From the IMG/VR virus record IMGVR_UViG_3300022682_000042, positions 18,542 through 82,541 of that record: a stretch of DNA of 64,000 nt; one strand, given 5' to 3'. The stretch comes from a virus. How positions within the stretch are numbered: position 1 is the stretch's first letter; each line of letters opens with the position of its first letter. The notes under the pieces are model-generated. The model saw only the letters and a program-made list of their open reading frames with translations. It searched no databases and had not been told where the DNA came from. A program made the position numbers and the translations under genes. This document shows, piece by piece, positions 120 through 16,302 of the stretch.

Positions 120-899
120 ATGACACAGTACAGAAGCTACAAAAAGCCAGAAGTGCCATTTGGTATTATGGTTTCCGGTGGGTCTATTCCAGGCTGGTCC
201 TATGTCCATAAATTCGGGCGAAATCCGGCTTGTGCTGCCGATACCAAAGAAATCATCTGGGACGGCTCCAGAGGAACCTATGAATGGCCTGACTCGGCCT
301 GTACCCTGTCTATTCAATCTACTTCTGCCTGTGATGTAGCCACTACCGGGGCCGGGGCGCAAACGGTTAAAATCTATGGCCATAATGCCAGCCGGTCAGA
401 AATATCTGAGACCGTATCTCTAAATGGGACAACGACCGTTAATTCGGCCTGCGCTTATAGTCGGGTATTTAGAATGGAGGTTACTCAGGCCGGGTCAGAT
501 ATGCACAATCACGGCATTATATCGGCTTGTGCAAATAGCTATGGATTGGCCTATATTTCGGCTTCATACAATCAGACCTTGATGGCCCTATATTCTATTC
601 CAGATGACCGGGAGGGATTTTTGGTTGATTGGTATGGGTCTGTCAATATTTCAAGTAAAATTGCCGCTGAACGAGAGGCTGACCTAACTCTATGGATTCG
701 TGGGGCCAGTTCAAATAATGCTTTTCAGATTAAGGACTTTATTGGCCTTAACTCTAATGGGGCCGGTCATGCTGAAATAGATTTTAACCCGAACCGTTAT
801 CTAGCTCCCGGTACAGACCTTTATATTTCAGCTTGCGCCCAGGATGCTGATACAGACATATCGGCCGGTTTTGACATTTACCTACATGATATAACGTAA
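120..899 (+). CDS. Phage hypothetical protein, probably virion-associated
   Basis: 259 aa with a GGAGG RBS and an HKFGRNP motif. Ser/Thr/Gly-rich. All six Cys lie in xAC motifs. Confidence 0.65.
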   Translation: MTQYRSYKKPEVPFGIMVSGGSIPGWSYVHKFGRNPACAADTKEIIWDGSRGTYEWPDSACTLSIQSTSACDVATTGAGAQTVKIYGHNASRSEISETVSLNGTTTVNSACAYSRVFRMEVTQAGSDMHNHGIISACANSYGLAYISASYNQTLMALYSIPDDREGFLVDWYGSVNISSKIAAEREADLTLWIRGASSNNAFQIKDFIGLNSNGAGHAEIDFNPNRYLAPGTDLYISACAQDADTDISAGFDIYLHDIT

Positions 900-1014
900 C
901 CCCTTGCAGTCTGCCTCAAAATGTTGTATAGTATTTTTACAGATTACAACAGTTTGATATGGGCCGGGGGTCCCTGGTCAGAAAAGGAAAACTACCTTGC
1001 AAAAGGAGAAGGAG

Positions 1015-2426
1015 GTGGGCCAGGGCAGTTCTATTCAAGCGTATAACGTTGTCTTCATTTATGCAGACAATCAGCATGAATGGAACTGCTCTAGTCCCAG
1101 TGGCGTAGTCTATCGCCATCAAGTGGTTTGAATCGGGCCGGCCAAGGCTGGTCTGGTAGACTCATTCACGTTTCCGGATTCACCGAGTTCCTCAACCCCG
1201 TCATTCAAGACATTCTGATGCCGGCCGATGTGATTATCGTCCAACGTAATGTCATCCATCCCAGGGTTTATGATGCTATGGCCTATTGGCAAGGGATGGG
1301 AAAACCGGTAGTGGTTGATCTGGATGACGCCTACCATTTTTTGCCCTGGTCCAATCCGGCCCGGCCTTTCTGGTTCCTGAAACCCCTGCCGGATGTAGAC
1401 GGGGTAGAACGGGAAGGGGCCGGTATTAGGTTGCTTGAGGAAGGTCTGGTTAGAGCTGACGGTCTGGTAGCCCCGAACAAGCTGTTGTTGGCCGATTGGG
1501 AGTATGCCAGCGGCAATAGTTATTTTATCCAGAATTATGCCGAGCCATCCTGGTGGGGAGTGCCACCCCCCGGCCCGTGGGTTCCATCCGGTCAACAACA
1601 TTGGACCTGTAAAGATGATGACCGGCTCTGGCCCGTTAAGTGGTGGCGAGACAGAAACAGAACGGTCAGGGGCCTACCCCCCCGGTCTATCCTCAAGAAA
1701 GGATTGGGGATAAAAGATAGAATAGTTATTGGGTGGGGTGGGTCGATGTCCCACTATGACAGTTTTTGGGGGAGTGGTCTAATGCAAGCCATCCCCAAAA
1801 TATCGGCCCGATACCCCGAAGTCCTGTGGATGATCTGTGGGGGCGAGAAACGGCTTTATGAACAGTTAGAGGTTCCGGCCCGACAAAAGTTCTGGCAACA
1901 CGGCGTTCCTCCCCAACAATGGCCCGAAATAGTCTGCCGGTTTGACGTGGGCCTGGCCCCCCTGTATGGGCCTTATGACCAGCGTCGGTCCTGGATAAAA
2001 GGAATTGAGTATGCTCTGGCCGGAACCCCGTGGGTTGCTACCAGGGGCGAGACTTACAAGGGCCTGATAGACTGGCCTGCCGGCCTACAAGGGCCGGAAA
2101 GCGCCGAATGGTGGGAAGATAGCTTAGAGGTTATTCTGTCTGACCTTGAGGGCTGGCAGGATAAGGCCGAGGCCCTGTTACCGGAGGCCCGAAAGCGGTT
2201 CATTATTGACAATAACCTGGACAAATACAGTCAGGCTATTAACCAGATGATAGCCGATAAACAACAGGCCGGGCAGGGTGAGGTGGTTCTGCCGAACGTG
2301 ATAAGGATACCAAAAAATGGCAAAAAGGAAAAGGAAGTCAGTCGGGACATCCCGACCGGAGAAATTATCAGTCTTGACGGCCCAGGCCCCAATGGGGTCA
2401 GAGAGGTTGAAATTAAAACCGGGTAA
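1015..2426 (+). CDS. GT-B glycosyltransferase; N-terminus (1015-~1097) is in a different frame from the body (1095-2426)
   Basis: Motifs ADVIIVQR, VVVDLDD, VIGWGGSMSHYD, FDVGLAPL and SWIKGIEYALAGTPWVAT. An RBS plus GTG at 1015 opens YADNQHEWNCS, which needs a -1 shift to join SQWR..LNRAG. Confidence 0.75.
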
Positions 2427-2624
2427 TGTGTTGATGTTGGCTGAGGAGGTTGGGGGTCAATTGCCGACTATTGCCGGGGTTGAGGTAGGACGGGCTTTGA
2501 CTTATGATTTGATACAATTTCTGAATAGGAATTGTTGACCGAAATAGGTTTGGTGATTATCCGAATCATAAATTTGTACCCTATACAGCCAATATTCTTC
2601 GTGTCAATCTCTGTTGCTTAAGCC

Positions 2625-2727
2625 ATATAACGCCCGCCAATAAGCCGCGCCAACGGGACTTGGTTTATAGTTGAGCCTTACAGCCAGAGGCACGTGTCTG
2701 GCGTCGGCTTTATTGGCTTTGTTAGGT
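2625..2727 (-). mobile_element. attC-type recombination site 4
   Basis: Minus strand ACCTAAC-AAAGC-CAATAAAGCCGACGCCA...TGGCGCGGCTTATTG-GCGGGC-GTTATAT. Imperfect inverted repeat with two extra bases on the R''-L'' arm. Confidence 0.8.
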
Positions 2728-2961
2728 TGCGTCTTGGCTATCTTGCATTGCCAGATACAGCCCTAGCACAACTTTGTCCATTACCATTTCAAGATCGGTT
2801 TGCGACCAGATTGCAAACCCTTTTTGCTTGTCAAAAATAGCCTGATTTATTTTGCGACGTTTTAATGGCTTACCTGTTCGCTTATTTAGACCGTAGTCAA
2901 AATCTTCCGTAAGGCACTTTAATATTTTTTTCTTTGCTAACCGTATATCTGATTTGTTCAT
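2722..2961 (-). CDS. Cassette 4 hypothetical protein
   Basis: 79 aa. ATG follows the core site GTTAGGTTGC; the stop lies inside the inverse core GCAACCTAAC. Confidence 0.75.
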   Translation of the reverse strand: MNKSDIRLAKKKILKCLTEDFDYGLNKRTGKPLKRRKINQAIFDKQKGFAIWSQTDLEMVMDKVVLGLYLAMQDSQDAT

Positions 2962-2965
2962 AGCA

Positions 2966-3051
2966 ACCTAACGCCCGCCAATGAGCGGCGGGCTACTGTG
3001 ATTGTTTGTGATGGCCAGAATCAACCGTCCGCTCCATTGGCATTGTTGGGC
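2966..3051 (-). mobile_element. attC-type recombination site 3
   Basis: Minus strand GCCCAAC-AATGC-CAATGGAGCGGACGG...CCGCCGCTCATTG-GCGGGC-GTTAGGT. Confidence 0.8.
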
Positions 3052-3199
3052 GGATGCATACCGGATAGCAATGCTTCTGGTATGATGCGCCCTGAGCGTT
3101 TGGTTGAAAAAAATACATTTTCTGGCCTGCCTCGATAACCGCACCGCATTTGTCACAGGTCGTTATGTAATCGTTGACAACTGGCTCAAAATTAAACAA
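2993..3199 (-). CDS. Cassette 3 small Cys/His-rich hypothetical protein
   Basis: 68 aa with a GAGGTGG RBS and TTG start. CDKC...HCYPVC. The frame reads into attC 3. Confidence 0.55.
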   Translation of the reverse strand: MFNFEPVVNDYITTCDKCGAVIEAGQKMYFFQPNAQGASYQKHCYPVCIRPTMPMERTVDSGHHKQSQ

Positions 3200-3219
3200 G
3201 TTCCACCTCTAAGCTATCC

Positions 3220-3345
3220 GCCTAACGATCTGAGTTGTGGCGATTGCGGGTTGGCTCCACAACTATGATTTACAGAATATTTGCAGCCCCAACCGACCAC
3301 AATTAAAAGCAAGATTAGCAATTCGCTACGAACGACTTGTTAGCT
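3220..3345 (-). mobile_element. attC-type recombination site 2
   Basis: Minus strand AGCTAAC-AAGTC-GTTCGTAGCGAATTGC...GCAATCGCCACAACT-CAGATC-GTTAGGC. Extra C and A on the R''-L'' arm give G and T on the bottom strand. Confidence 0.8.
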
Positions 3346-3573
3346 ACCGTGACGGCTGGCATAGACACGCAAACACCGCTTGCAGGCATTGGCTAACGGT
3401 ACATTTATGGTCATCCGGTAGCCATTAGAATATTTTCCGCTGGTATCAAAACCACGTCCGCAAATTGGCGCACTAATATGTCCGGCTTCAATTAAATTTT
3501 GGCGGCTTTTACCTTCGCCAGCCTCATAAACCAAATGTAACTTTTGACCACCTTTGATTTGCATATAACGCAT
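3340..3573 (-). CDS. Cassette 2 hypothetical protein
   Basis: 77 aa. GGAGG RBS follows the core GTTAGCTACC; the stop lies in the inverse core GGTAGCTAAC. CGR..CKRC. Confidence 0.75.
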   Translation of the reverse strand: MRYMQIKGGQKLHLVYEAGEGKSRQNLIEAGHISAPICGRGFDTSGKYSNGYRMTINVPLANACKRCLRVYASRHGS

Positions 3574-3593
3574 TTTGGCCTCCAAAAGAAGGT

Positions 3594-3718
3594 AGCTAAC
3601 TATTGAGTTGTGGCGATTGCGGGCCAGCACCGAACCGCAACATAATTGATAGATACGCTGGCAAGACTATTTCAAAAATCGCTGTGGTAGCAATTCGCCC
3701 ACCAACGATTTGTTATTA
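3594..3718 (-). mobile_element. attC-type recombination site 1
   Basis: Minus strand TAATAAC-AAATC-GTTGGTGGGCGAATTGC...GCAATCGCCACAACT-CAATA-GTTAGCT. The arms are nearly identical to those of attC 2. Confidence 0.75.
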
Positions 3719-4005
3719 CGGGGTTGGATTACAAAGCCGTATTTCTCTTGCCTCACCCGTTCTTTTTCAACCCAAAGGGCGCGGACATTAGCCACTTTCT
3801 GGTTATCAATTTCACCATCTGTAAATAATATCCCTTCGGGGTCATCGCGGTAATCCCACACCCCGCCAAGTTTAACTTCGCCTGTTTCTCTATCAAAAAC
3901 AACTTCAAGGGCCAACCCTAACGGATGAAAGAACTGCCGGTTCGCCTCTTGCAAAAAACCCTTCTCTTGAAATTCTTTTATGTTTATACGTTTGATTTCT
4001 GGCAT
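3667..4005 (-). CDS. Cassette 1 phage-type hypothetical protein
   Basis: 112 aa with a GGAGG RBS (MPEIKRINIKEFQEKGFLQEANRQFFHPLGLALEV). The frame reads into attC 1. Confidence 0.75.
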   Translation of the reverse strand: MPEIKRINIKEFQEKGFLQEANRQFFHPLGLALEVVFDRETGEVKLGGVWDYRDDPEGILFTDGEIDNQKVANVRALWVEKERVRQEKYGFVIQPRNNKSLVGELLPQRFLK

Positions 4006-4029
4006 CTTGCCTCCGATCTTAAAACAAGT

Positions 4030-4093
4030 ACATAACAATATTATAACATTACACCTTGCTTGATATTATACCCAACCTATGCTATAATGTCAA
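4030..4093. promoter_or_regulatory. attI-like core sites plus superimposed divergent sigma70 promoters
   Basis: Minus: TTGACA(4093-4088)-17-TATAAT(4070-4065), then GTTATAA and GTTATGT cores. Plus: TTGATA(4060-4065)-17-TATAAT(4083-4088), 7 nt before ATG 4096. Confidence 0.75.
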
Positions 4094-4095
4094 AT

Positions 4096-4758
4096 ATGAA
4101 ACCATCAAATGAATTACAACAAAAATTGGACAGTGCCTTTGCCGGCCTGTCCAAGAATACCGTCCGGCTTTACTCTCACTGGATTATTGAGTTGGCCAAA
4201 TTCCACGCGCCGCTCAAACTATCCGAGCTTGAACAATGGTATATTGACCAGTTTTTGGCCTGGATGGTCCGGCCCGGTGAATACTCCCGATCTACTACCA
4301 ATCAGGCCAAAAGGGCGATCCGTCTGTTTTATGAGTCGCTCGGCAGGCCGGTCAATGTACAAATGGTATCGACCCGGCACAAATCCCGACCAGTCGATAC
4401 CATCAGCCGGGAGCAGGTCAAGGAGGTTTTGTCCCGGTTGCCACTGCTGTACCAGATGCTGGCTGGCGACATTTACCACAACCTGACCCGACCCGGCGAG
4501 GTCGTCAAGCAGTCGAGGTCCAGGGGTGGATATACCGCCGTCTCTACCCTAACCAATCACATCAAACAAGCCGGTAAGGAGGCCGGGATTATCAAGCCGG
4601 TAACAGCGATAACACTATATCAGTCCGGCATTGTTCATCGGCTTGAGGATAACGGACCGGTGGCAGTAATGGAACTAACAGGGCTAAAACCAAGTACAAT
4701 TCAGAGGTACTTGAGACAGACTAAAAATAGTGATATAATAAATAAAAAGGGGTTTTAA
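4096..4758 (+). CDS. Shortened, catalytically degenerate integron-integrase-like tyrosine recombinase
   Basis: 220 aa. IntI-like N-terminal SAM domain (SKNTVRLYSHWI..FH..IDQFL..SRSTTNQAKRAIRLFY) and AGIIKPVT. HxxR is replaced by ITLYQS and LGH by TGL. The first Arg (RPGE) and the Tyr (QRY) are kept. Confidence 0.7.
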   Translation: MKPSNELQQKLDSAFAGLSKNTVRLYSHWIIELAKFHAPLKLSELEQWYIDQFLAWMVRPGEYSRSTTNQAKRAIRLFYESLGRPVNVQMVSTRHKSRPVDTISREQVKEVLSRLPLLYQMLAGDIYHNLTRPGEVVKQSRSRGGYTAVSTLTNHIKQAGKEAGIIKPVTAITLYQSGIVHRLEDNGPVAVMELTGLKPSTIQRYLRQTKNSDIINKKGF

Positions 4759-5927
4759 TGAAAACTATTGTAGTTAGCCATCAACCGACTTTTTTACCCA
4801 TTATCCGGCAATTGTCTCAATTAGGATGGACCATTATCACCCTGACCCAACCCTATGCCCAGGAATTGGGCAATCAGGGAATTGAGGCCAAACCTCTGGG
4901 GGCCTTTGGGGGCGAAGGACAAGACTCGGCCTTTGCCTGGGCCGGGGCCTGTATCTCGGCCCTGTCCGGCCTGGAACTGAACGGGGCCGGGCCGGGGCCG
5001 ATAGGTTGGCTCAGACAAAACTCAGTCCCCTTTTACTATCCCAGATTGGCCGACATGGGGATGATCGTTGTCTGTCTTGAAAATCTCAAGCCTGATTTGG
5101 TCTTGCTACATAATGATGTAGAACCGGCGACCAGGGCCGTAGCTCTGTGGGCCAAAACCAAGTCGGTTCCTTGTCTACACATCCCTCACGCTATTTACCA
5201 ACTGGTCAACCGGGGGCCTCTAGGGACCGATGTCCACGACTTGGTAACGGCCTCGAATATCGGGGTGGCCGGCCCTTTCCAGCGGGTCTGGTATGAGGCT
5301 TGTGGGGCTGAACCGGCTAATGTCAGGGAGACCGGCCTGCCTCAGTTCGATGGGTGGGCCACCCGGCAATCGGGGGACCAAAAGAAGGCCAAGAAATTGT
5401 TGGGCCTTGACCCAAACAGGCCGGTAGTAGCTTACGGGGGAACCTGGCCCCAGGGGACCAATGCCGGGGGCCTAAATGATGAATGGCAATTTGTCTACTT
5501 CTCTTTTCTTGAGGCAGCCAACCGGCTTGGCTTTCAGGCTGTAGTCAAATGTCATCCCAGGGGAGGAAAACAGAATTGGGACTGGCACGTGCAACAGGCA
5601 ACCGAGGCCGGCCTGGATGGAGTTGTAACCCCATCTCACCTGGAACAAGTGATAGATGCCTCTGACCTATTTCTGGCCCCCTACGGCTCTAATGTATTGC
5701 TTGAGGCGGCCCATAATCCGGCCTGTCGACTGGCTACGACCCACGGCTATAAGGGAGACAGGGCCGTGGAAAAAGTGCCGATAGACCCAGACGGGATGGC
5801 CGAGGCCCTGGGTAAATTATTGACCGAAGAACCCAGGCCAACCGGGACCTTGTTGGCCAAGTACCTGGGAGACCGGGATGGGTTAGCCTGGCAACGGGTA
5901 GTAGGGTATTGTGAGGAGTTGGCCTGA
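4758..5927 (+). CDS. GT-B fold transferase, capsule-polysaccharide/sialyltransferase-like
   Basis: 389 aa. PDLVLLHND, CLHIPHA, TGLPQFD, VVKCHPRG, SNVLLEAA. The KxHP motif is typical of CMP-/CDP-donor GT-B enzymes. Confidence 0.65.
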   Translation: MKTIVVSHQPTFLPIIRQLSQLGWTIITLTQPYAQELGNQGIEAKPLGAFGGEGQDSAFAWAGACISALSGLELNGAGPGPIGWLRQNSVPFYYPRLADMGMIVVCLENLKPDLVLLHNDVEPATRAVALWAKTKSVPCLHIPHAIYQLVNRGPLGTDVHDLVTASNIGVAGPFQRVWYEACGAEPANVRETGLPQFDGWATRQSGDQKKAKKLLGLDPNRPVVAYGGTWPQGTNAGGLNDEWQFVYFSFLEAANRLGFQAVVKCHPRGGKQNWDWHVQQATEAGLDGVVTPSHLEQVIDASDLFLAPYGSNVLLEAAHNPACRLATTHGYKGDRAVEKVPIDPDGMAEALGKLLTEEPRPTGTLLAKYLGDRDGLAWQRVVGYCEELA

Positions 5928-6403
5928 TGCCCCCAATACGTTTGAAAATTGAGACCCACCCATCTTTAGAGCAAGTCTCTTTACCTTACCGGAAATTTAG
6001 AGAAAAGGATTTGGCCGGGTTTATGGAGACATTAGCCGGGATATTGCATCAAAATATCCAGGATGTTGCCCCAGTTCGAACCGGTGTTGGCCGAAAAAGT
6101 ATTGTTGCTCGAAAAAGAAAAGATTTGGAATGGGCAATCTTAATTGATAGACGGTTTCGGGGTGGGAAATATATGACCTGGCAACATGAAGGGGTTTCAC
6201 CTTCAAAAATAAATCCGATAGTTCCTAGAAAAAAACAGGCCCTTTGGTGGAGTGGGCTTCCTCATCCGATAGCTATTGTCAGAAATCATCCAGGCATTAA
6301 ACGGCTTGGATTTTTCGAGACTGGAATTGAAATGAGTAGAGGAGACCTTGATTCTGCCAGAGATTTGATAGGGGCTGAAATACAAAGAAAGTTTGAGGAA
6401 TAA
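5927..6403 (+). CDS. HK97 gp10-like head-tail joining protein
   Basis: APVRTGVGRKSI and HPGIKRLGFF motifs; basic; lies before the tail genes. Confidence 0.65.
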   Translation: MPPIRLKIETHPSLEQVSLPYRKFREKDLAGFMETLAGILHQNIQDVAPVRTGVGRKSIVARKRKDLEWAILIDRRFRGGKYMTWQHEGVSPSKINPIVPRKKQALWWSGLPHPIAIVRNHPGIKRLGFFETGIEMSRGDLDSARDLIGAEIQRKFEE

Positions 6404-6748: not shown

Positions 6749-7023
6749 CCCTATGGTCTACCCGCAACAGTTTTTGTAAGAACTGACGGCATAGAGGCGG
6801 CCCTTTGTAAGCCAGTTGTCCAAATAAAAAACCGTTGCTTGCAGACAAGAATATTATACCACAATACTTGGACCGACACAAGTACCCCCTTGTCAACCTC
6901 CCCTAATTATGTTATACTATTCCTAGAAATCCCAACGGCCAGCTAGCCCCTGGCCCACAACCTAAAGACAGTAATCAGGCCGAGAGGACCGGCATCCTCT
7001 CGGCCTTTTTGTATTGGAGCAAA

Positions 7024-7452
7024 ATGTCAGCTTCAAATATTGCATCGGCCCTGGTCACTACTTTATCTAGTGCATCACGGTTTGGGCCAAAATGTGTTGG
7101 GCTTGATTTTGGGGTACTTGAGACAAGTTCGGCCTCTGGGATTGTAGTCTCCTGGGCCACAGTCGAGGCCATGCAGGGTCAGTTCGGGGACCGGCCCGAA
7201 AGTGACCGGGAATGGACTTTCCTGCTGGATACATTTAGTAAGGACACCGGTAACGTCAAATCGGTATTAGCCCGAACTTTGGCCTGTGTGGATGATGTGT
7301 TGGGGGCCATCGGGGATGACCCGACCTTGCAGGGAACGGTCGAAAGGGTATCGGCCATCCGAGGCCGGCGGAATGTTGACCTGGCTTATGAGGCCGGGGG
7401 CTTTACCTGGCTACGGATGCCGATAGAGGTAGATGTCGTTGAATGGCCTTAG
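7024..7452 (+). CDS. Putative tail terminator/tail completion protein
   Basis: 142 aa with a GGAG RBS. DPTLQGTV motif; lies before the tail tube gene. Confidence 0.55.
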   Translation: MSASNIASALVTTLSSASRFGPKCVGLDFGVLETSSASGIVVSWATVEAMQGQFGDRPESDREWTFLLDTFSKDTGNVKSVLARTLACVDDVLGAIGDDPTLQGTVERVSAIRGRRNVDLAYEAGGFTWLRMPIEVDVVEWP

Positions 7453-7702
7453 TCATATTCAACTAAATTTCAACTTGTTTATTGTAAAGTTGAATCTAGT
7501 AATCACAAAGTGATATTTAATGTTATCCCCTAGCTTGTAGCATCGCCTCATGATTGAGGAATTACTGGGTCAAGTACGCCATAAAATTGTAGGTCATTTG
7601 CCTCAGTAATTAGAGTTGGATGTATGACTGCATCCATTGATTAAAATTATAACACAAGTTTAAAATATATAGAAATGGCCTTACGGGTAGAAAGGGGGCC
7701 TT

Positions 7703-7927
7703 ATGTCCAAAAAGAAGAAACTGTATCGGATATTAGAGCCGGGGGGCCTAACCCTGGCCGGCAAACATTTTGTTGAGCATCAGGAATATGACCTGTTGGC
7801 TGAAGGGTGGGGGACCGGTGACATTGGCCCGGCCCTCCGGTCAAATATGATAGTTGAGGCCGGGGAGGTTGAGGAACCTGAACCGGCCAAAAAAGAACAG
7901 ATAACAAAGGAGAAAGACAATGACTAG
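7703..7927 (+). CDS. Small hypothetical protein
   Basis: 74 aa; overlaps the tail tube start. Confidence 0.55.
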   Translation: MSKKKKLYRILEPGGLTLAGKHFVEHQEYDLLAEGWGTGDIGPALRSNMIVEAGEVEEPEPAKKEQITKEKDND

Positions 7928-8342
7928 AAAGTCGGCGCGTGACGCCTATATCGTTATTCTGGATGGTAATTCGGCCAGTCAGAATATCAGTGGCCGGTCC
8001 AATAGTTATACATTCAGCTTTACCTCGGAAGAGGTGGACGTGACTACCTTTGGGGCCTTATACCGGGAACGGGTGGCCGATGGTTTGCGGGATTGGTCTC
8101 TGGAATTGGGTGGTTTTTGGGACGGGGCAGCCTCCCAGATTGACGATATTTTTTCCAGTGTGTTTGCAGCCTGTACGTCGGTTTGTCTGTACCCGGCCGG
8201 TTCATCGGTCTCGACCTACTATTCCGGCTGTGCAATTTTGCAGGACTACACGGTCGAGGGGGCCGTTGAAGGAGTTGTCTCCTGGTCGGCCACCTTGATG
8301 GCGGCCAGTATCCTCAATTGGACTGATGGTGATGGTATTTAA
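7920..8342 (+). CDS. Tail tube (major tail) protein
   Basis: EEVDVTTFG..RERVADGLRDWSLELGGFWD and YTVEGAVEGVVSWSATL, a TP901-1-like tube pattern. Confidence 0.8.
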   Translation: MTRKSARDAYIVILDGNSASQNISGRSNSYTFSFTSEEVDVTTFGALYRERVADGLRDWSLELGGFWDGAASQIDDIFSSVFAACTSVCLYPAGSSVSTYYSGCAILQDYTVEGAVEGVVSWSATLMAASILNWTDGDGI

Positions 8343-8991: not shown

Positions 8992-11918
8992 TGGCCCGTA
9001 ATGTCACCATCAGGTTCATCGGTAAAGATGAACTATCCCCCGTTGCCCAAAAGATAGGTAACAATATGTCCGGCCTGGGCAAACAGCTTGGGTCGGCTTC
9101 TTCTGAGGCATCTTCATCGACCGGTATATTCTCTAAATTAGGGTCGGCCATTGGTGGTATGGCTACTGTGGCCGGGGGGATTATTGCGGCCAATATTTTT
9201 GGCAATCTCGTTACTGGCTTAAAGGATTTTGCGGCGGCCGGCCTTCAGGCTGTCGGTGAAACCCAGATGCTTGAGCAACGGCTTAACTCCCTCTTTGCAG
9301 CTAACCTAATGTACGAACAACAAACAGTCACCACTACTGAGGCCATAACTAAATCAGCCGAAGCTATTGCCAAAGAACGGGAGGAGATGGAACGGAATGT
9401 GGCCAAGCGCGATACTCTGGCTGCCAAGATACAGGAACAACGTCAACGGGTTATAGACTTGACGGCAGCCTGGGGGGAACAGGGGTTGGCTACCAAAACA
9501 GCCCAGGCCAAACTTGGGGAGATGGAAGTTCAGTTATCCCAACTAGATGCCGAAATAGCCAGGGGGGTATCATCAGTTGATGATTTTGTAACTATCACCC
9601 AAACTCAATGGGTTCCTACCGGTAAAGATTTGGCTCAGACCCAGGCCGAAGCCAGGGTTGAGGCTGAAAAACTCCTCAAGGGTATTGAGGCCCTGGTCAA
9701 AGTTTCTCCCTTCCCTACAACTGAAATTCAGACTATCGGGGCCTACGGGGTTCAGATGGGGATGACAGCCGATGAGGCCCTGGAATTTACTACCACGATG
9801 ACCAACTTGGGCCTGGCCCTGGGTCTACCAGCGCACGAAGTGGTCAGAATGTCTCAAAACCTGAAACAGATGCAGGGGATGAGTAAACTAACTACTATTG
9901 ATATGCGGGAGATGGAACGCCGGGGTTTTGATCTGGCCAAAGTCTTACAAATTGAAATGGGGATGTCGGTTGAGGAGTTTAATGCCGAACTTGCCCGGTC
10001 CCCGGAAAAGTTCAACGAGCTTATTTCAGCCATCAATACCTTTTCTCAAAACACATTCGGGGATGTTATTACCCAGATGAACCAAACCTTACCGGCCATG
10101 TATGGTCGGCTCAAGGATACGTTTGTTTTAGGGGCCAGAGACTTGTTACGGCCCATAGTCGAAGCTGTAACCCCGTTTGCCTCAGATTTTATAGATGAGT
10201 TCGATAGTCAAATGACTACCTTAATGCCTGCCATCGGGGAACAGATAGCCGGTTATCTGGTAACCGGCCTGCAACTAGGACAGACCGGTCAACTCGGACC
10301 AGCTATAGCTCAAATTCTATCTGACGGGTGGACTAACTATGTTTTGCCGGTCCTACAAACCTGGACAGAGACATTTTTTCAGTGGGTAGTGACAACGGTT
10401 CAGGAATTACCTACTCAATTATCAACTTTGGTATCCGGTATTACCGAATATTTTTCCGGGTCCGGGGCCGAACTGCAAACCTCGGTTCATACCTGGGTCC
10501 AGGCATTTTGGTCCTGGGTACAGGAGGCCGGAGCGCAGTTAGGTCAGGTCTTGGGGGCCTTGTTAGGTCAGATATTCAATTGGGCCTCAAGTGGGGAAAC
10601 CCAAACCCAACTTAACGAAATGGGCTTTGTTTTGGGACAACGGTTAGTAGATGGTTTGGCTCAATTAGTCGAGGACCAGGCGGCCCTAATTGATATTATG
10701 TCGAAATTGGTAGCCGGTTTGGGAATAGCAGTTGGGGCTATCGGTGGGGCCTTGATAATGGTTGGGGGCCAGATTGTGGCCGGTATCATCTCCGGTATTC
10801 TGGAAAAATTGGGGGTAGACCTCAAGCCGGCCTTAGTTAGTGACCTGGGAAATATTTTTTCCGGTATGGCCGAAAACATTAAAATCATTGCCAAAGTCAT
10901 CGGAACTAATATTGTCGAGGGCATCAAGACCGGGATAACCGATGCCAAAGACAAAGTAACTACGGCCATAACTGACATAGCTACCGGGGCCTTGGATACC
11001 ATCAAAGATGTTCTGGGTATTGGCAGTCCGGCCAAAGCCTTTATTGACATCGGCCTGAATATTATGGAGGGGCTGGCCGGGGGTATTACTGAGAATATAG
11101 GCAAGGTTCTGGGAGCGCTTGGGTCAGTCGGTAAGTCTCTTCTGGGGGGCCTATTCGGGGGGGATGATGAAGGGTCAAGCCTGGACCTGGGGGACCTGTT
11201 AATGAACTTGGTAACCGGTATCCCGGAGGCCATAGAGAACCTAAAGATCGGCTTTACCGAACTGTGGACGATATTGAATGAACAAGTAGTTGGCCTGGTA
11301 ATAGAACAGGCTCTTGTTCCCCTGGTAGCTTTATTAGTACAACTGTATACGGTCCATATTCCTACCCTACAAACAGTTTGGACGGCAGCCAACGAAGCCA
11401 TCACTTCATCGACGTTCCCGGTCCATGATGCCATCCGACTTATTATTACCTTATTGGGTCAAGCCTCACAAGCGGTCAAACAGTTGGCCCTGGATTTTAA
11501 GGCGGCTATGGATGACATTGCCGATTCGATGGAAGATGCCGCCGATGGTATTGGGGAATTAGTAGACCGGATAGATGAGGCCACTGAGGCATTTAGGAAA
11601 ATGGCCGAGGCAGCCAAGGAAGCGGCAGGGGCCTCGGAGGCTGCCGGGTCTACGGCCCCCGGTGGGGCCGGGTTCCAACACGGTACGGGCCTGTCAGGGT
11701 TCCGGGTTCCGGGGCCTGGGGGCCGGCCTTTCCCCTTGACGGTTCATGGCGGCGAGATGGTTGAGGTAATGCCGGCCGGGGCAGCCAGACAGGCCCGGCG
11801 GAGTGGGGATGGTGGGGGTAATACCTGGAATGTGACTATTAACGCTACGGAGTCGGTTGGGGGAGTTCAACATTCTTTGATGACGCTGATGGCGCTTGTT
11901 GGTTCCTCTTCTGGATGA
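8991..11918 (+). CDS. Tape measure protein
   Basis: 975 aa, helical and Ala/Gly-rich with Trp-spaced repeats. GIGSPAKAF and C-terminal VHGGEMVEVMP motifs. Confidence 0.9.
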   Translation: MARNVTIRFIGKDELSPVAQKIGNNMSGLGKQLGSASSEASSSTGIFSKLGSAIGGMATVAGGIIAANIFGNLVTGLKDFAAAGLQAVGETQMLEQRLNSLFAANLMYEQQTVTTTEAITKSAEAIAKEREEMERNVAKRDTLAAKIQEQRQRVIDLTAAWGEQGLATKTAQAKLGEMEVQLSQLDAEIARGVSSVDDFVTITQTQWVPTGKDLAQTQAEARVEAEKLLKGIEALVKVSPFPTTEIQTIGAYGVQMGMTADEALEFTTTMTNLGLALGLPAHEVVRMSQNLKQMQGMSKLTTIDMREMERRGFDLAKVLQIEMGMSVEEFNAELARSPEKFNELISAINTFSQNTFGDVITQMNQTLPAMYGRLKDTFVLGARDLLRPIVEAVTPFASDFIDEFDSQMTTLMPAIGEQIAGYLVTGLQLGQTGQLGPAIAQILSDGWTNYVLPVLQTWTETFFQWVVTTVQELPTQLSTLVSGITEYFSGSGAELQTSVHTWVQAFWSWVQEAGAQLGQVLGALLGQIFNWASSGETQTQLNEMGFVLGQRLVDGLAQLVEDQAALIDIMSKLVAGLGIAVGAIGGALIMVGGQIVAGIISGILEKLGVDLKPALVSDLGNIFSGMAENIKIIAKVIGTNIVEGIKTGITDAKDKVTTAITDIATGALDTIKDVLGIGSPAKAFIDIGLNIMEGLAGGITENIGKVLGALGSVGKSLLGGLFGGDDEGSSLDLGDLLMNLVTGIPEAIENLKIGFTELWTILNEQVVGLVIEQALVPLVALLVQLYTVHIPTLQTVWTAANEAITSSTFPVHDAIRLIITLLGQASQAVKQLALDFKAAMDDIADSMEDAADGIGELVDRIDEATEAFRKMAEAAKEAAGASEAAGSTAPGGAGFQHGTGLSGFRVPGPGGRPFPLTVHGGEMVEVMPAGAARQARRSGDGGGNTWNVTINATESVGGVQHSLMTLMALVGSSSG

Positions 11919-12004
11919 TTTGAATATCCCATAGGTAATCTTGCTTAGTATGGTAAAGTATGGTATAATTACCTTACTATACTATAACACTAAAGGAGAT
12001 TACC

Positions 12005-12529
12005 ATGAGTGATTATATTTTGTTAAGTGCTTTAGCCGATGAATTGGGGATGTGGAAAAGTAACTTAAGAAAATACATTTTATCAAACGGAATTTCATTT
12101 CAAAAAATAAGAACCCCAGAAACAAGAAATCAATTAGCCTTAGCCTTAACTGAGAATGATGCCAATTTAGTCCGGCAACTAAGAGAACAAGGTGGATTTG
12201 GCACGAAAAAACCTATTCCTTCTGATAAAAACGGGGATGGGTTTTTTTATATCATCCAAATTGTTCCAGACCTTGACCCATTACGGGTAAAGCTTGGCTT
12301 TTCATCTAACGTTGAGGGACGTTTACAGGCCCATCGAACTGCGGCCCCTACTGCCAAATTGGCTAAGTCTTGGCCCTGTCGTCGTAGTTGGGAAATAGCA
12401 GCTATGGCAAGTATAACTAAAGACGGCTGTGAGTTGATTGCCAATGAGGTTTATATATGTAAGGATGTTGACAAACTCACAAGTAACGGTGATAAGTTCT
12501 TTGAAATTATGCCAGAAGTTAATTTTTAA
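12005..12529 (+). CDS. T5orf172/GIY-YIG-like domain protein (inserted gene)
   Basis: GFFYIIQ..RVKLGFSSNVEGRLQAH. AT-rich, with its own promoter (~11941-11969) and downstream terminator. Confidence 0.6.
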   Translation: MSDYILLSALADELGMWKSNLRKYILSNGISFQKIRTPETRNQLALALTENDANLVRQLREQGGFGTKKPIPSDKNGDGFFYIIQIVPDLDPLRVKLGFSSNVEGRLQAHRTAAPTAKLAKSWPCRRSWEIAAMASITKDGCELIANEVYICKDVDKLTSNGDKFFEIMPEVNF

Positions 12530-12595
12530 GGCTATTGTACTGTTCTCTATTTTGTGATAAAATGAGGTTACAGGCAATCAAAAAATAATAATTTG

Positions 12596-12632
12596 AAAAA
12601 GCGGTGGGACCGCCCAGGCCCTACCGCTTTTT
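12596..12632 (+). terminator. Rho-independent terminator
   Basis: AAAAAGCGGTGGG..CCCTACCGCTTTTT. Confidence 0.6.
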
Positions 12633-12645
12633 TATTGGAGTAACT

Positions 12646-14571
12646 ATGGGTGATTGGAAAGTTATCCAAAATGGAAGTCAGCTTGATTTTGCTGACAATT
12701 TTGGCTTTAGAATATCGCAGGCCCCTGGAACCGGCTTTAGTCCGGTTGAAAATATTTATGTCGATTACGGCCTACTTGACGGGGGCCTCTTCCAGCGTAC
12801 CCGGACCGGGGTCAAGTCATTTAGCCTGGTAGGGACTATCTCCGGTTCAAGCGTGGCCGGCCTGTTGGGGAATCGGCGGGCCTTAATTGATGCCGTCAAG
12901 CCTGACCGGACCAGCCCTCAAGAGCCGGTGGTTATCCAATATACCGGGGGGGCCTCAACCTTGCAGGCCAGCGCCTATTATGATGGGGGCCTTGAATTAG
13001 GTAATGTGGAAAGTTTTCACGAGCCCAGGGTGGCTCTGAACTTTTTGCAATTTGATCCGTATTGGGAGGTGGCGGCTAGTGATGGGGCGGTAGTTAACAA
13101 TACAACTTCATTGGGCAACCAGGAAATAGTTACAGCTTCGTATTTTTTAGAAAGGCAAATAACGGGTCAATGGACAGTACCTGGCTCTATCGGTTGGTCT
13201 GGGGTTCCTGGTACTACGTCCAAGACATTATACGACCCTAGTGGGCGATTATATTTGGGCGCACCAGATGATGTTTTCGGTGGGTCAAATACTGGACCGA
13301 TTGTATATCTTGAAAATAACCAATGGACAGCAATCTCAGCGTGTACCGGAGGAATTTTCTCAGATATGGCTTTGGGGCCTAATAGACTTTATGCCTTGAA
13401 CATTAGAGACCATGCAGACCAGACTCAAAATGTCTGCTCCTGGATATTTGGGTCAGCCAGTATTTTTACGGTAGGAGCCAGTAGCGGACAAACATGGACA
13501 AATACGCCTAGGAATATACTTGTCGAAAAAAATAACAGCATTTTTATGACAGGTAATTTAACCGCTGTTGGTAGTAATACGGCTTGTGGTATTGCCTGGT
13601 TTGATGGAACCGAATGGTGGGGAGATACTGAATTTGATGGGGGAGCAAGTTTGGCGCAAACATATCCATTAGAGGATATAAAAAAAGGGGGGGATGGTAG
13701 ATATTATGTAATTTTACCAGAAAATATAGATGCTGTTGGGTCTGCCGTTGAAGTGTCTGCCTGTGGGTTAGCAGCCTGGGACCGGTCTGCCAGTCGTTGG
13801 TATGGGGTTTCATCCTCCCCGACCGAATGGATTGGGGGAGGACTGGAAAGTATTGCAGTTGGCCTGGATGGTACAATGTATTTTGCCGGGGCCTGTGGTT
13901 TTGTTGGGTTAGGAAGTGGCTGTACCGCTGTTGCTTATGACTATGAAAATGTTAGATTAGTCGGAGGTGGCCTGGGAGGTGGAAATAGCCAGGTTAATGC
14001 CCTGAAGGTCGATGCAAATAATAATCTACATGCTGTAGGTCAAGGGAATATTTTACCGGTAGGTTATTCGGCCTCAAACCAATATTGGGTCTGGAATGGG
14101 TATAGTTGGAATGTTGGGGGAGGGGCTATTCTTTTTAATGACAATCTTTATGATATTGACATATACAATGATAACAACGACAAAAGAACAGCTATCGTAG
14201 GTAACTTTACATCGGCTAGTTGTTGTTCTTATACAAAAATCACAAATAACGGTACGTCTAATGCTTACCCCGTCATTACTGCCAGTGGACCAGGAAAATG
14301 GTACTCAATTGAGAATCATACTACAAATCAAACTATCTTAATAGATTATACATTGGCAACTGGTGAGACTGCATCGTTAGACCTTAGACCAGGACAGAAA
14401 ACATTTATCAGTGATTTTAATGGTAATATATTGTCTAATATTCGGCCTGAATCAGATATATCTAATTTTTATTTGGCCCCCGGAGACAACAATATTACTA
14501 TTTTTATAAATGATGAATCCGCCAGTTCTAACATTGAGTGGGTAACTCGCTCCTGGTCAATAGATTTATAA
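12646..14571 (+). CDS. Distal tail protein (Dit) with an inserted beta-propeller-like domain
   Basis: N-terminal Dit segment to FDPYW and C-terminal NNGTSNAYPVITASGPG..LAPGDNNI flank a ~390 aa Gly/Trp-rich insert. Confidence 0.75.
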   Translation: MGDWKVIQNGSQLDFADNFGFRISQAPGTGFSPVENIYVDYGLLDGGLFQRTRTGVKSFSLVGTISGSSVAGLLGNRRALIDAVKPDRTSPQEPVVIQYTGGASTLQASAYYDGGLELGNVESFHEPRVALNFLQFDPYWEVAASDGAVVNNTTSLGNQEIVTASYFLERQITGQWTVPGSIGWSGVPGTTSKTLYDPSGRLYLGAPDDVFGGSNTGPIVYLENNQWTAISACTGGIFSDMALGPNRLYALNIRDHADQTQNVCSWIFGSASIFTVGASSGQTWTNTPRNILVEKNNSIFMTGNLTAVGSNTACGIAWFDGTEWWGDTEFDGGASLAQTYPLEDIKKGGDGRYYVILPENIDAVGSAVEVSACGLAAWDRSASRWYGVSSSPTEWIGGGLESIAVGLDGTMYFAGACGFVGLGSGCTAVAYDYENVRLVGGGLGGGNSQVNALKVDANNNLHAVGQGNILPVGYSASNQYWVWNGYSWNVGGGAILFNDNLYDIDIYNDNNDKRTAIVGNFTSASCCSYTKITNNGTSNAYPVITASGPGKWYSIENHTTNQTILIDYTLATGETASLDLRPGQKTFISDFNGNILSNIRPESDISNFYLAPGDNNITIFINDESASSNIEWVTRSWSIDL

Positions 14572-14572
14572 A

Positions 14573-15688
14573 ATGCCTGTCAATTATTCTGTCTCCTTAC
14601 TCAACCCAATAGGCGAACAGCTTGACCTATTAGATGACTGGCTTACCCTGTCTTATACCCGGTCTGTCAACGATGTTGGGGTGCTGGAGCTGGTCCTGGA
14701 TGGTAACTATTCCCCTTTTGCTAACCTCAAACTTGATGGCCGGTTAGTGGTTTGGCGTAATGCCGGAGGCCGGTCTTATGCCGACACTGATACAGTATTT
14801 CTTATCCGACAAATAGAACGGACCTTATCCAGTTCAGGCCAACGAACGATAACAGTAGTGGGCCTGTCGGCCGTTGAACTACTTAGGCGACGCATTGTAG
14901 CCTATGACGCCGGGTCCTCTCAGGCCAGTAAGTCAGATTTGGCCGATGACTTGCTGAAAGAGATTGTAGCCGAAAACCTGGGTAGCTCGGCCACAGATAG
15001 CAACCGGGATATCTCAACCTATCTGGATATTGAGGCCGATGTCAGTTTGGGGCCAACGGTCACGACTGACTTTGCTAGAGACAATGTTTTGTCTGTCTGT
15101 CAGGAAATAAGTCAGTCTACAATTCAGGCCGGTAGTCCGGTTTATTTTGATGTAGTGGCCCCTACTCAATCCACCCTTGAGTTCAGGACGTTCCGGGGCC
15201 AACGAGGGCTTGACCACACGTTTCCAAGCGGAACAAACCCGGTGGTATTATCCCCGGACCGGGGAAACCTGGTCAATGTTAGACGAACCTATGATTGGTC
15301 TGATGAGGTTACTTTTGCCTATGTTGGAGGGCAGGGGTTAGAGAGTGACCGGGATGTGCAGTCGGCCTCAAGCGGGGACCGGATAGCCAACAGTCCTTTA
15401 AACCGGCGGGAACGATTTGTGAGTTATTCTCAGGCTACCAGTGGGTCAGCGGCTTTGGTCAATCAGGCTGAGGCAGCTTTACGGGAAGGCCGACCCAAAC
15501 GGTCCTTTGTAGGAGAATTGGTCAACGTACCGGGGGCTACTGAATACGGGGTTCATTGGAAGTTCGGGGATTTGGTAACGGCCCAATTCGAGGGGGAAAG
15601 TGTTGACTGTATGGTTGAGGCTGTTCAGGTGAGCTTTGTCCGGGGCCGGGAAAGCATCAATGCCAAATTACGGGTAGTGGAGGACTGA
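14573..15688 (+). CDS. Siphovirus ReqiPepy6 Gp37-like tail/hub protein
   Basis: LSYTRSVNDVGVLEL, YVGGQGLESDR, RRERFV and YGVHWKFGDLVT motifs. Confidence 0.75.
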   Translation: MPVNYSVSLLNPIGEQLDLLDDWLTLSYTRSVNDVGVLELVLDGNYSPFANLKLDGRLVVWRNAGGRSYADTDTVFLIRQIERTLSSSGQRTITVVGLSAVELLRRRIVAYDAGSSQASKSDLADDLLKEIVAENLGSSATDSNRDISTYLDIEADVSLGPTVTTDFARDNVLSVCQEISQSTIQAGSPVYFDVVAPTQSTLEFRTFRGQRGLDHTFPSGTNPVVLSPDRGNLVNVRRTYDWSDEVTFAYVGGQGLESDRDVQSASSGDRIANSPLNRRERFVSYSQATSGSAALVNQAEAALREGRPKRSFVGELVNVPGATEYGVHWKFGDLVTAQFEGESVDCMVEAVQVSFVRGRESINAKLRVVED

Positions 15689-16302
15689 TGAGCTTTGAGC
15701 AGGAAGTAGCCGAGGTTTTGGTCAATCTAAGGCGACGGGTTGAACGGCTGGAAATTCAAGAAAGTAGTGGGTCTGGGGCAATACAACTCATTGCCGAAAC
15801 AGAACTAACAGCTGATACTGCTATTGTATCATTAACATCTATCCCTGATAGTTACCGTGGATTGATTGTGACTGGACAATTCAGAACTACTCGTTCTAAT
15901 GATAATGACACTATTGATTTCCGTTTCAATGGTTCGTCAGCTACTAATTATGATTATTTTTCCACAGCGTTTCGAGGTGATTCGGCCACAGTTTATAACT
16001 CAGGTTCTGGAGTCACAGAAATATCGACAGTATTTAACTGTGAAGGTGGAACGGCGTGTGATTCAAATTTTACTCCGGCTTTGGGATATATTTTAGGATA
16101 TGCAGAAACAAATAGGCAAAAACAAATTTTCTCTGTTTTTTCTGGTAGGTTTGGGGATACTACCAGCAATACAGATTTTTTGTATAGGCAAACAATGGGT
16201 CGATGGAGATCGTCAGATGCTATTACCCAAATTGATATGTTCTCAACCAATGGTTGCAATATTGCAGCCTCATCTATTGTTCAGCTATATGGGATACTTT
16301 GA
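15688..16302 (+). CDS. Tail tip/fibre protein
   Basis: N-terminal coiled coil (LRRRVERLE), then IPDSYRGL..FNG..AITQIDMF..VQLYGI beta domain. Confidence 0.6.
   Translation: MSFEQEVAEVLVNLRRRVERLEIQESSGSGAIQLIAETELTADTAIVSLTSIPDSYRGLIVTGQFRTTRSNDNDTIDFRFNGSSATNYDYFSTAFRGDSATVYNSGSGVTEISTVFNCEGGTACDSNFTPALGYILGYAETNRQKQIFSVFSGRFGDTTSNTDFLYRQTMGRWRSSDAITQIDMFSTNGCNIAASSIVQLYGIL

Follow-up and report, generated by a model that had tools for sequence, protein, structure and literature searches.

The window examined here is a stretch of 64,000 nucleotides of a viral genome (IMG/VR record IMGVR_UViG_3300022682_000042, positions 18,542 to 82,541), and it opens within the structural gene module of a phage. 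This module starts at a Mu-type portal protein, wraps round the end of the contig and continues on the plus strand of the window through the genes for a jelly-roll virion protein (open reading frame, ORF, 120-899) and for head-tail, tail tube, distal tail (Dit) and minor tail proteins, with two putative glycosyltransferase genes, GT_A and GT_B, lying among them (Table 1). The element under study is a short sequence context that recurs in the encoded proteins, in which a cysteine follows Ser-Ala or Ser-Gly; this context is a real protein-level pattern of the phage's virion proteins. An initial annotation had remarked on the recurrence of S-A-C and x-A-C in these proteins and had proposed that it marks a modification signal, for example an acceptor for glycosylation by the neighboring glycosyltransferases, or a site of cross-linking.

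ORF 120-899 has exactly six cysteines (residues 38, 61, 71, 111, 137 and 239), and these stand in the contexts PAC, SAC, SAC, SAC, SAC and SAC, as the initial annotation had read them. With alanine making up 11.2% of the protein, all six would follow alanine with a probability of 2e-6, and six were never obtained in 200,000 shuffles; the broader motif S-[GA]-[SC] occurs six times in the protein against 0.77 expected. The five nucleotide 9-mers that encode S-A-C all differ from one another (tcggcctgt, tctgcctgt, tcggcctgc, tcggcttgt and tcagcttgc), in line with the varied codon usage already noted. The contexts that had been listed for Dit, for the tail tube protein and for ORF 15688-16302 are likewise all present, and the tube protein has an S-V-C in addition.

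To place these sites in the setting of the whole genome, we compared a virion set of 25 plus-strand ORFs of at least 70 amino acids, lying between the scaffold/capsid region and window position 16302 and leaving out the two glycosyltransferases and an IntI-like gene, with a background set made up of the remaining 100 ORFs of the same 82.5-kb genome. Observed counts were tested against within-protein shuffles, and anagram counts served to control for local composition; the choice of virion ORFs and the wording of the motif were both post hoc, made with the data already seen. Serine stands two residues before cysteine (position -2) in 20 of the 53 virion cysteines, against 4.2 expected (4.8-fold, p 1.3e-9). 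Removal of ORF 120-899 leaves 15 of 47, and removal of Dit as well leaves 11 of 39 against 3.0 expected (p 1e-4), whereas serine precedes only 12 of the 305 background cysteines at this position, against 15.5 expected. The preference is position-specific, as serine is found at no more than 2 of 53 positions at -1 and 3 of 53 at +1; the residue at -1 is alanine or glycine in 24 of the 53, against 10.1 expected.

Extending the count to both possible third residues gave the same picture. The motif S-[GA]-[SC] occurs 43 times in the virion set against 9.5 expected (a count reached in 0 of 1000 shuffles), as compared with 9 against 10.7 in the background set, so that the comparison of structural with non-structural ORFs that had been suggested for this signal comes out clearly on the structural side. 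After S-[GA], cysteine is enriched 12.2-fold and serine 3.2-fold, while threonine (1.0), alanine (0.7) and glycine (0.8) are not; the looser pattern S-x-C is enriched 4.1-fold in virion proteins, against 1.4-fold for S-x-S. The order of residues matters, with SAC found 7 times against once for its other five orders pooled, and SGC 6 times against once. SAS, whose frequency had also been remarked upon, is found 18 times against 4.3 expected (0 of 2000 shuffles), its rearrangements ASS and SSA numbering 8 and 5. For SGS the order makes no difference (SGS 12, GSS 10, SSG 12). Two threonine-containing tripeptides are order-enriched too, namely TAT (11 against 4.1 expected; ATT and TTA 2 each) and TAS (12 against 3.7). 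When all tripeptides of the virion set are ranked by z-score, SAC and SGC come third and fourth, behind only HVL and HIL. Other sequon-like patterns, none of which includes cysteine, showed no enrichment: S-[GA]-x-T stands at 12 against 7.5 expected (equaled in 68 of 1000 shuffles), [ST]-[GA]-x-T at 18 against 15.6, G-x-T-[GA] at 9 against 8.8 and S-T-[AG] at 7 against 7.5.

The sites are isolated and scattered, with S-[GA]-[SC] present in 18 of the 25 virion proteins at no more than nine copies per protein; the motif is absent from the portal (828 aa) and from the scaffold-like protein, and occurs twice in the tape measure (975 aa). Nine proteins of the virion region share 16 sites of the form [ST]-[AG]-C, of which the background has only two. 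The seven S-A-C tripeptides in the mechanically derived ORF set of the window comprise five in ORF 120-899 and two in Dit, and x-A-C without these two proteins stands at 5 against 3.9 expected, a count reached by 711 of 2000 shuffles. The x-A-C recurrence originally described thus holds for ORF 120-899 and Dit but does not extend to the other virion proteins, where the general signal is instead the serine at -2.

Unrelated phages do not share this preference. The 1326 control ORFs come from 81 loci of unrelated phages that surround homologs of ORF 120-899 and so represent mainly structural regions. In them serine lies at -2 of 204 of 2951 cysteines (203.9 expected), S-[AG]-C is found 20 times where 34.1 would be expected, and the ratio for S-[GA]-[SC] is 1.21. 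Tripeptides of this kind are enriched only 1.1- to 1.6-fold in unrelated phage structural regions, where S-A-C stands at 0.28. Phage particle proteins in general therefore do not show the pattern. We also observed that ordinary phage ORFs have less S-A-C than expected (4 against 14.2 in the 1071 ORFs of 100 aa or more in 80 of these loci), while T-A-C, at 17 against 13.3, is not depleted.

Two simple origins for the pattern could be set aside. The corresponding class of 9-mers is found 16 times in frame but only 1 and 3 times in the two other frames, and 5, 5 and 2 times on the reverse strand; this restriction, together with the five differing S-A-C 9-mers, rejects a DNA repeat or DNA-level motif, as the initial annotation had argued on the grounds of codon variation. 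Its description of the signal as one acting at the protein level is borne out as well, as the pattern is specific to frame, to position and to virion proteins, and is seen neither in the phage's other proteins nor in unrelated structural regions. The bacterial lipoprotein lipobox has the consensus [LVI][ASTVI][GAS]C, and S/T-A/G-C matches its positions -2 to +1. Inspection of the sites nevertheless rejects a lipobox, for they are internal (residues 18-440), five of them lie in ORF 120-899 strands, and isoleucine or valine occupies position -3 in only 6 of 16.

Table 1. Genes and sequence sites of the structural module discussed in the text (window coordinates).
Feature	Position	Strand	Remarks
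Jelly-roll virion protein, phrog_8198 family, 259 aa (ORF 120-899)	120..899	+	6 Cys, all after Ala
P-A-C (Cys38)	225..233	+	Family column Val/Ile, 99% hydrophobic; outside the S-A-C set
S-A-C (Cys61)	294..302	+	Start of strand 61-67; placed opposite Cys111 by couplings
S-A-C (Cys71)	324..332	+	Loop following strand 61-67
S-A-C (Cys111)	444..452	+	Within strand 107-113
S-A-C (Cys137)	522..530	+	Within strand 134-138
S-A-C (Cys239)	828..836	+	Strand 233-240, polar face of the hairpin pairing with the conserved D-I-S-A-G-F-D strand
GT_A, GT-B fold group-1 glycosyltransferase	1128..2426	+	Next gene after ORF 120-899; enzyme type common in phages
GT_B, second putative glycosyltransferase	4758..5927	+	Weak GT4 and Glyphos_transf matches only
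147-aa head-tail protein	7009..7452	+	Three S-A-S within the first 45 residues
Tail tube protein	7920..8342	+	S-A-S 18-20; A-A-C 83-85 (nt 8166-8174); S-V-C 87-89; S-G-C 102-104 (nt 8223-8231)
Distal tail protein (Dit)	12604..14571	+	8 Cys; SAC twice, TAC, GAC, SGC; S-[GA]-[SC] 9 against 1.2 expected
Dit beta-propeller insertion, aa 170-545 (~375 residues), DUF5122/Rax2/Reg_prop type	13111..14238	+	SAC247, NVC278, TAC328, SAC387, GAC431, SGC440
Sipho_Gp37-like minor tail protein	14573..15688	+	S-V-C, S-A-S, S-G-S
204-aa tail-region protein	15688..16302	+	T-A-C 122-124 (nt 16051-16059), two S-G-S

We next turned to the family and fold of ORF 120-899, which contains the densest set of S-A-C sites. 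The protein matches phrog_8198, a family of virion proteins without an assigned function (E 1.5e-29; residues 16-256 align with positions 41-260 of the 262-position profile), and hits no Pfam family at E ≤ 0.01. Its family is very large, with 304 homologs found by word search and, at E ≤ 1e-3, 14,348 representatives of clusters, and the domain often forms the C-terminal part of proteins of up to 1047 residues. Distant homologs (26-34% identity) occur in T4-like cyanophages, where they are annotated as 'tail fiber protein' or 'virion protein'; the homolog in cyanophage S-SCSM1 (a 'virion protein') follows the gene for the distal subunit of the long tail fiber. Family alignments of 29, 120 and 328 members were used. 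An AlphaFold2 (AF2) model built from the 120-sequence alignment (predicted local distance difference test score, pLDDT, 93.9) is all-beta with 16 strands, and places five of the six cysteines in strands as assigned by DSSP. Structural alignment of this model with 48,161 chains gave jelly rolls as the best matches (Z 9.4-8.0), headed by 4ind_A (Z 9.4, root-mean-square deviation (rmsd) 3.0 over 109 aligned residues) and satellite tobacco necrosis virus (Z 9.3), with trimers resembling tumor necrosis factor and C1q, phage fiber and cement proteins, and Ena pilins following at Z 7-9. A Foldseek search of the model against the PDB returned only template-modeling (TM) scores of 0.11-0.24 and was uninformative, and among solved structures no sequence relative of the family was found; good matches in BFVD were confined to uncharacterized phage proteins (TM 0.78-0.87).

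Alignment of the family distinguishes the alanines of the x-A-C sites from the residues that flank them. Of the columns at -1, column 60 is alanine in 276 of 323 sequences and column 70 in 124 of 249; column 136 is 98% Ala, Val, Ile or Leu, column 238 is 82% hydrophobic, and column 110 is mixed. By contrast, the cysteine and -2 columns of the five S-A-C sites are polar or charged and variable across the family, which has Arg, Leu, Glu or Gln at column 61, Asn or Thr at 111, Thr or His at 137, and Thr, Asp, Ser or Asn at 239. This pattern suggests that the five S-A-C sites are exposed, outward-facing strand positions flanking a small hydrophobic column, and so speaks against burial of the motifs, which had been named as an outcome that would count against a surface signal. 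The P-A-C site differs, its cysteine column being hydrophobic and therefore of a buried type.

Most members of the family carry zero to two cysteines, and the cysteine set of ORF 120-899 is confined to a clade of six sequences (P0001-P0006, 44-60% identity, of which P0001 is ORF 120-899 itself and P0002-P0006 are known from contigs of 1.5-2.6 kb). Within this clade C61 and C137 are present in 6/6 sequences, C111 and C239 in 5/6 and C38 in 4/6, in contexts of the form [S/T/A/G]-A-C; in P0002, the nearest relative, the -2 residues are S, T, A and A. Because the family conserves the -1 alanine while the cysteines are confined to this clade, the alanine of x-A-C is ancestral, looks buried and is not part of any new signal, and the cysteines (together with, in this phage, the serines) are recent, clade-specific changes. 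P0001 is rich in serine where the family is rich in threonine (11.2% S and 6.6% T, the medians for the family being 7.1% and 10.6%). All three Thr-majority -2 columns are serine in ORF 120-899, as compared with 2 of 18 other Thr-majority columns. Homology between ORF 120-899 and Dit was considered as a shared source of the motif and rejected (best BLASTP E 0.60). The clade members P0005 and P0006 (45% and 44% identical to ORF 120-899) are each recorded on a contig of 2609 bp, with the source in common, and may be tandem paralogs. Outside the clade, 80 IMG/VR homologs carry 0-5 cysteines each and A-C only four times in total, and no relative of GT_A, GT_B, PseB, NeuB, Dit or the tube protein was found at E ≤ 1e-4 in the 80 loci that contain them; these being unrelated phages, they show only that the motif is not a trait of the family.

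Several observations suggest that the cysteines of ORF 120-899 are neighbors in the folded protein. A second clade (P0008, P0009, P0010, P0015 and P0028) has exactly two cysteines, at columns 71 and 137, and pairs of cysteines co-occur in other clades as well, at columns 119 and 248 (jointly in 6 sequences, with 6 cysteines per column) and 167 and 227 (jointly in 5, with 6 cysteines per column). Mean-field coupling analysis of 318 family sequences (about 300 effective sequences, Meff 299; 32,385 pairs) gave, at ranks 5 and 49 among all pairs, the couplings 236-249 and 240-245, which fit the hairpin 233-240/245-257 and serve as an internal check. The same analysis couples strand 61-67 antiparallel with 107-113 in the register i+j=172 (64-108 3.1, 63-109 2.0, 66-106 1.6), which sets residue 61 opposite residue 111. 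It also places the hairpin tip 137-143 beside 61-64 (64-139 4.4, 61-138 2.9) and residues 37-39 beside 238-244, with 39-244 ranking 71st of 32,385. Taken from couplings and co-occurrence rather than from coordinates, the six cysteines likely sort into the neighbor pairs 61-111, 71-137 and 38-239.

In the tail tube protein, residues A84, C85, S102, G103 and C104 are invariant in 24/24 family members (23 relatives of 51-76% identity), a degree of conservation that is typical of structural cysteines. A search of the genome contigs database yielded no tube relative, and isolated phages yielded only a 29.5% identical match. The comparison with tube-clade phages covered fourteen fragments, which share the gene order 5927-7009-tube-8342-8779-tape measure, and their pooled proteins have S-[GA]-[SC] 68 times against 26.1 expected and S-[GA]-C 20 times against 3.1, although much of the latter excess is the orthologous tube S-G-C and was not counted as independent. 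By fragment, S-[GA]-[SC] reaches 14 against 4.4 in L092, 9 against 3.9 in L082 and 8 against 3.4 in L091. These three carry S-A-C at places other than the tube too, for example in gp37-like proteins, and in L082 and L092 the S-A-C of the gp37-like protein lies some ten residues upstream of the S-V-C of the present phage, for whose own gp37-like protein no relative was found in IMG/VR. Fragment L087, in contrast, has none beyond the tube (S-x-C 3 against 3.3 expected). In the 147-aa head-tail protein (ORF 7009), S-A-S sites 1 and 3 are S-[AG]-S in all seven relatives that cover them, including those that have no glycosyltransferase at the place of GT_B, and site 2 is A-A-S or A-T-S.

In Dit the sites fall largely within an insertion that the ESM Atlas places among beta-propellers of the DUF5122/Rax2/Reg_prop type, many of them in phage Dit-like proteins. 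Structural searches with this insert gave TM scores of 0.67-0.80 (query-normalized), with a best feature score of 0.90 that is borderline for a lead; a sequence search recovered only the insert itself among 8000 scored candidates, with no phage match, and a Pfam search at E ≤ 10 returned only a chance-level match to DUF6386. The insert is probably a receptor- or glycan-binding module. TAC328 and SAC387 lie in register in two alignable propeller blades (E 0.002), with SAS491 fitting the same register by eye; as copies of one blade repeat, TAC328 and SAC387 are not independent, and part of the Dit x-A-C count reflects a single structural position.

Three further proteins of the structural module were noted in passing. 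A 538-aa protein upstream of the window's first position (window -2376 to -760, genome 16165-17781) has a C-terminal half made of many repeats of about 11 residues, T-H-[VI]-L-T-[AS]-x-L-x-x-T-Q-T, which make HVL, HIL and QTQ the most over-represented virion tripeptides; it has no S-[GA]-[SC], and is likely a fiber shaft. A 135-aa Ser/Ala/Gly-rich protein (window -6037 to -5630, genome 12504-12911) has seven cysteines, the highest cysteine density in the virion region, with two S-G-C, one A-C-C and two S-A-S. The Mu-type portal protein (window 43592-46078) has an N-terminal match to MerR-type helix-turn-helix domains (E 1.6e-4).

As for the glycosyltransferases, neither GT_A nor GT_B has an informative sequence relative in the PDB. 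The database record of GT_A begins at residue 31 of a TTG-initiated ORF, which puts its real start probably near nucleotide 1218. Genes further on encode PseB-like, NeuB, aminotransferase, PseG-like and cytidylyltransferase proteins, two sulfotransferases and two methyltransferases, and this set of genes makes a sugar donor for protein modification plausible. Among the related fragments, L091:1-2749 encodes a GT_B homolog (49% identical) directly before its ORF 7009 homolog, ahead of the tail genes. Two tandem tube paralogs follow in that fragment, with 41.6% and 51.1% identity to the window tube. Fragments L087, L089 and L094 have no glycosyltransferase at the syntenic place, and L087 has none in the 7.6 kb upstream of its tube gene. 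With a single glycosyltransferase-bearing fragment to go by, these data hint that glycosyltransferase presence and motif density correlate.

How might this pattern be explained? Our preferred reading, held tentatively, is that S-A-C and S-G-C mark surface cross-linking cysteines, probably forming disulfides. The phage clade would have placed cysteines at solvent-facing beta-strand positions, right after an inward-facing alanine or glycine, and disulfides within or between subunits would form once the particle leaves the reducing cytoplasm, hardening the fiber, tube and baseplate proteins. In ORF 120-899 the alanine is an old core residue of the jelly roll, next to which cysteine replaced Thr, Asn, Asp or Arg at neighboring surface columns, and the predicted disulfides would join 61 to 111, 71 to 137 and 38 to 239. 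Such cross-linking would account for the conservation of the cysteines, for their pairing, for their restriction to extracellular particle proteins and for their clade-wise gain in a cysteine-poor family. Several results weigh against it, however. Direct couplings between the cysteine columns are weak (61-111 -0.3, 71-137 -0.2), and the co-occurrence of 71 and 137 may reflect a single evolutionary event. Cross-linking does not predict the position-specific serine at -2, the choice of serine at all three Thr-majority -2 columns of ORF 120-899, or the selectivity for cysteine and serine after S-[GA]. There is no bias toward even numbers of cysteines, the 17 cysteine-containing virion proteins dividing into 8 even and 9 odd, and the lack of a serine preference among the 2951 cysteines of unrelated phages means that no general rule of disulfide context is evident. 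The cross-linking suggestion of the initial annotation therefore fits cysteine conservation and the likely pairs better than a sequon does, but leaves the serine at -2 unexplained.

That serine is what a modification sequon would explain. Under this possible, if on balance unlikely, alternative, S-[AG]-[S/C] is most plausibly a site of O- or S-glycosylation by the two GT-B enzymes with sugars from the nonulosonic acid island, in which either the first serine is modified and the hydroxyl or thiol at +2 is read, or the serine or cysteine at position 3 is itself the acceptor. We regard as doubtful the full version of this proposal, in which the phage's GT-B enzymes would attach a phage-made nonulosonic-acid-type sugar at S-[Ala/Gly]-[Ser/Cys] on exposed strands in a dozen or more proteins of the particle, and cysteine would either accept the sugar through an S-linkage or be the residue preferentially recognized at +2. 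A sequon accounts for the whole tripeptide, for its spread over unrelated folds and for the serine better than cross-linking does; it would fit the confinement of the motif to the virion set as against background and controls, its presence in most virion proteins but not in the portal or scaffold-like protein and only rarely in the tape measure, the favoring of only the nucleophilic residues Ser and Cys at position 3, and the importance of residue order. The lineage-specific serines and cysteines on exposed-type columns at the five ORF 120-899 sites, the position of GT_A directly downstream of that gene, the sugar genes further on, and the contrast between the motif-rich, GT_B-bearing L091 and the motif-poor L087 point the same way. 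Yet the cysteines of the tube protein and of the ORF 120-899 clade are far more conserved than sequons usually are, the -2 residues of P0002 indicate that serine is not required, and the sites lie within beta-strands of folded domains. The S-[AG]-S sites of the ORF 7009 family are kept without a syntenic glycosyltransferase, although one could lie elsewhere in those genomes, and GT_A and GT_B could instead act on the host envelope or on DNA. Known S-glycosyltransferases are GT2 enzymes that act on small peptides, and only GT-B-type matches were found here among the scanned ORFs. No system of protein glycosylation is known to us whose sequon contains cysteine in the S-[AG]-C form, and a literature search on S-glycosylation sequons yielded, among the papers listed, only the glycocin type. 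The invariance of the tube S-G-C and A-C, the presence of C61 and C137 throughout the clade and the likely cysteine pairs thus tell against the idea of a glycosylation acceptor put forward in the initial annotation. The pattern might also involve no covalent chemistry, [ST]-[AG]-[STC] being a strand habit of the clade (polar out, small in, polar out) in which cysteine is tolerated as a look-alike of serine. The order enrichment of TAT and TAS, the serine-for-threonine bias of P0001 with its ancestral core alanine at -1, and the repetition of Dit sites with the propeller blades would all suit this explanation, but cysteine is far more context-bound than serine and is the residue most favored after S-[GA], a merely tolerated residue is not expected to be invariant in all 24 tube proteins, and unrelated phage structural regions show little of the enrichment; we judge it improbable. 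Chance, composition or a DNA-level motif is more improbable by far, and largely refuted: Ser, Ala and Gly abound in the virion proteins, residue order makes no difference for SGS, x-A-C is at expectation outside two proteins and the tests were picked after the data had been seen, but not one of 1000 to 2000 within-protein shuffles equals the observed count, local composition is controlled for by the anagram test, the 9-mers are restricted to one frame, SAC and SGC rank near the top of all tripeptides, and the p value for serine at -2 survives any reasonable correction. Cross-linking and glycosylation could also both be true, with S-A-S as the acceptor and the cysteines as staples, and the probability left over by these four readings belongs to an explanation that we have not thought of.

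Comparison with known systems helps to place the preferred cross-linking reading and its rivals. The closest parallel to cross-linking comes from the Ena appendages of Bacillus endospores (PDB 7a02), whose jellyroll subunits are cross-linked via single cysteines in strands B and I (bioRxiv 10.1101/2020.08.21.260141). ORF 120-899 resembles them as a jellyroll protein of an extracellular particle with single strand cysteines, and Ena chains are among its fold matches (7a02_A Z 8.7, rmsd 6.6, 110 aligned; 9i0y 8.5; 8pdz 7.9; 9t3p 7.2), at Z scores in the range of a common arrangement. It differs in lacking the N-terminal Cys-Cys connector (there is no cysteine before residue 38) and any Pfam family (Ena has DUF3992), in being twice as long, with 16 strands, and in having disulfides that are only predicted. 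For glycosylation, mycobacteriophage glycosyltransferases are reported to glycosylate virions, the capsid and tail tube subunits carrying the glycans at their C-termini (Freeman et al., 2023, Cell Host Microbe, via PMC12619734). The likeness lies in phage-encoded glycosyltransferases, here with their genes in the structural module, and the difference in that the motif of the present phage is internal, in strands, spread over 18 proteins and inclusive of cysteine, its glycan being hypothetical. The sites are not concentrated at C-termini, and the capsid protein has a single S-G-S as its only motif. GtfA of the serine-rich repeat adhesins is a GT4 (GT-B fold) enzyme. In these adhesins (GtfA/GtfB), alternating serines spaced mostly by Ala, Val or Thr form the O-glycosylation substrate (PMC6973325), so that serine alternating with alanine is a real O-glycosylation substrate, a point in favor of a sequon. 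S-A-S corresponds to the serine form of the motif, and GT_B has a weak GT4 match; the repeats, however, are long tandem arrays in exported disordered regions without cysteine, as opposed to isolated tripeptides in folded domains, and no accessory Sec (aSec) system was seen in this phage.

In glycocin-type S-glycosylation (SunS/ThuS) the sugar is carried on cysteine, and some enzymes also modify serine (for example PMC6405829, PMC12457901). An acceptor of this Cys/Ser kind would match the choice between serine and cysteine at position 3, but the substrates are small secreted peptides of a helix-loop-helix form, for which no S-[AG]-C consensus was found described, as compared with the folded proteins of 135-655 aa here. 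Pfam scans of 40 window ORFs found no GT2-type S-glycosyltransferase and only GT1/GT4-type matches, though an unscanned ORF could hide one. Eukaryotes have cysteine-anchored acceptor motifs on folded domains, N-x-C and the O-fucose and O-glucose sites of epidermal growth factor (EGF) repeats, which are served partly by GT-B enzymes; these depend on the disulfide-bonded fold of EGF or thrombospondin (TSR) repeats and have a spacing unlike S-[AG]-C. A virion-wide Ser-small-Cys context was not found in the literature on phage virion glycosylation, S-glycosylation sequons, serine-rich repeats or Ena, none of these searches having been aimed directly at it. Such a context, virion-wide and position-specific, is a feature of neither mycobacteriophage glycosylation nor Ena fibers.

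Either explanation leaves some 43 precise sites in about 18 proteins, which could be resolved by mass spectrometry of particles. If the S-[AG]-[S/C] tripeptide proves to be a sequon, it would provide a readable address for virion glycosylation in an uncultured phage, giving the glycosyltransferases and the sugar island defined substrates, and would extend protein glycosylation to a cysteine-containing motif, which would be the first such sequon on the particle of a bacterial virus. If instead the cysteines form cross-links, as we tentatively prefer, this phage clade would staple its fiber, tube and baseplate proteins at surface strands, a testable design rule for a cheap and robust particle.

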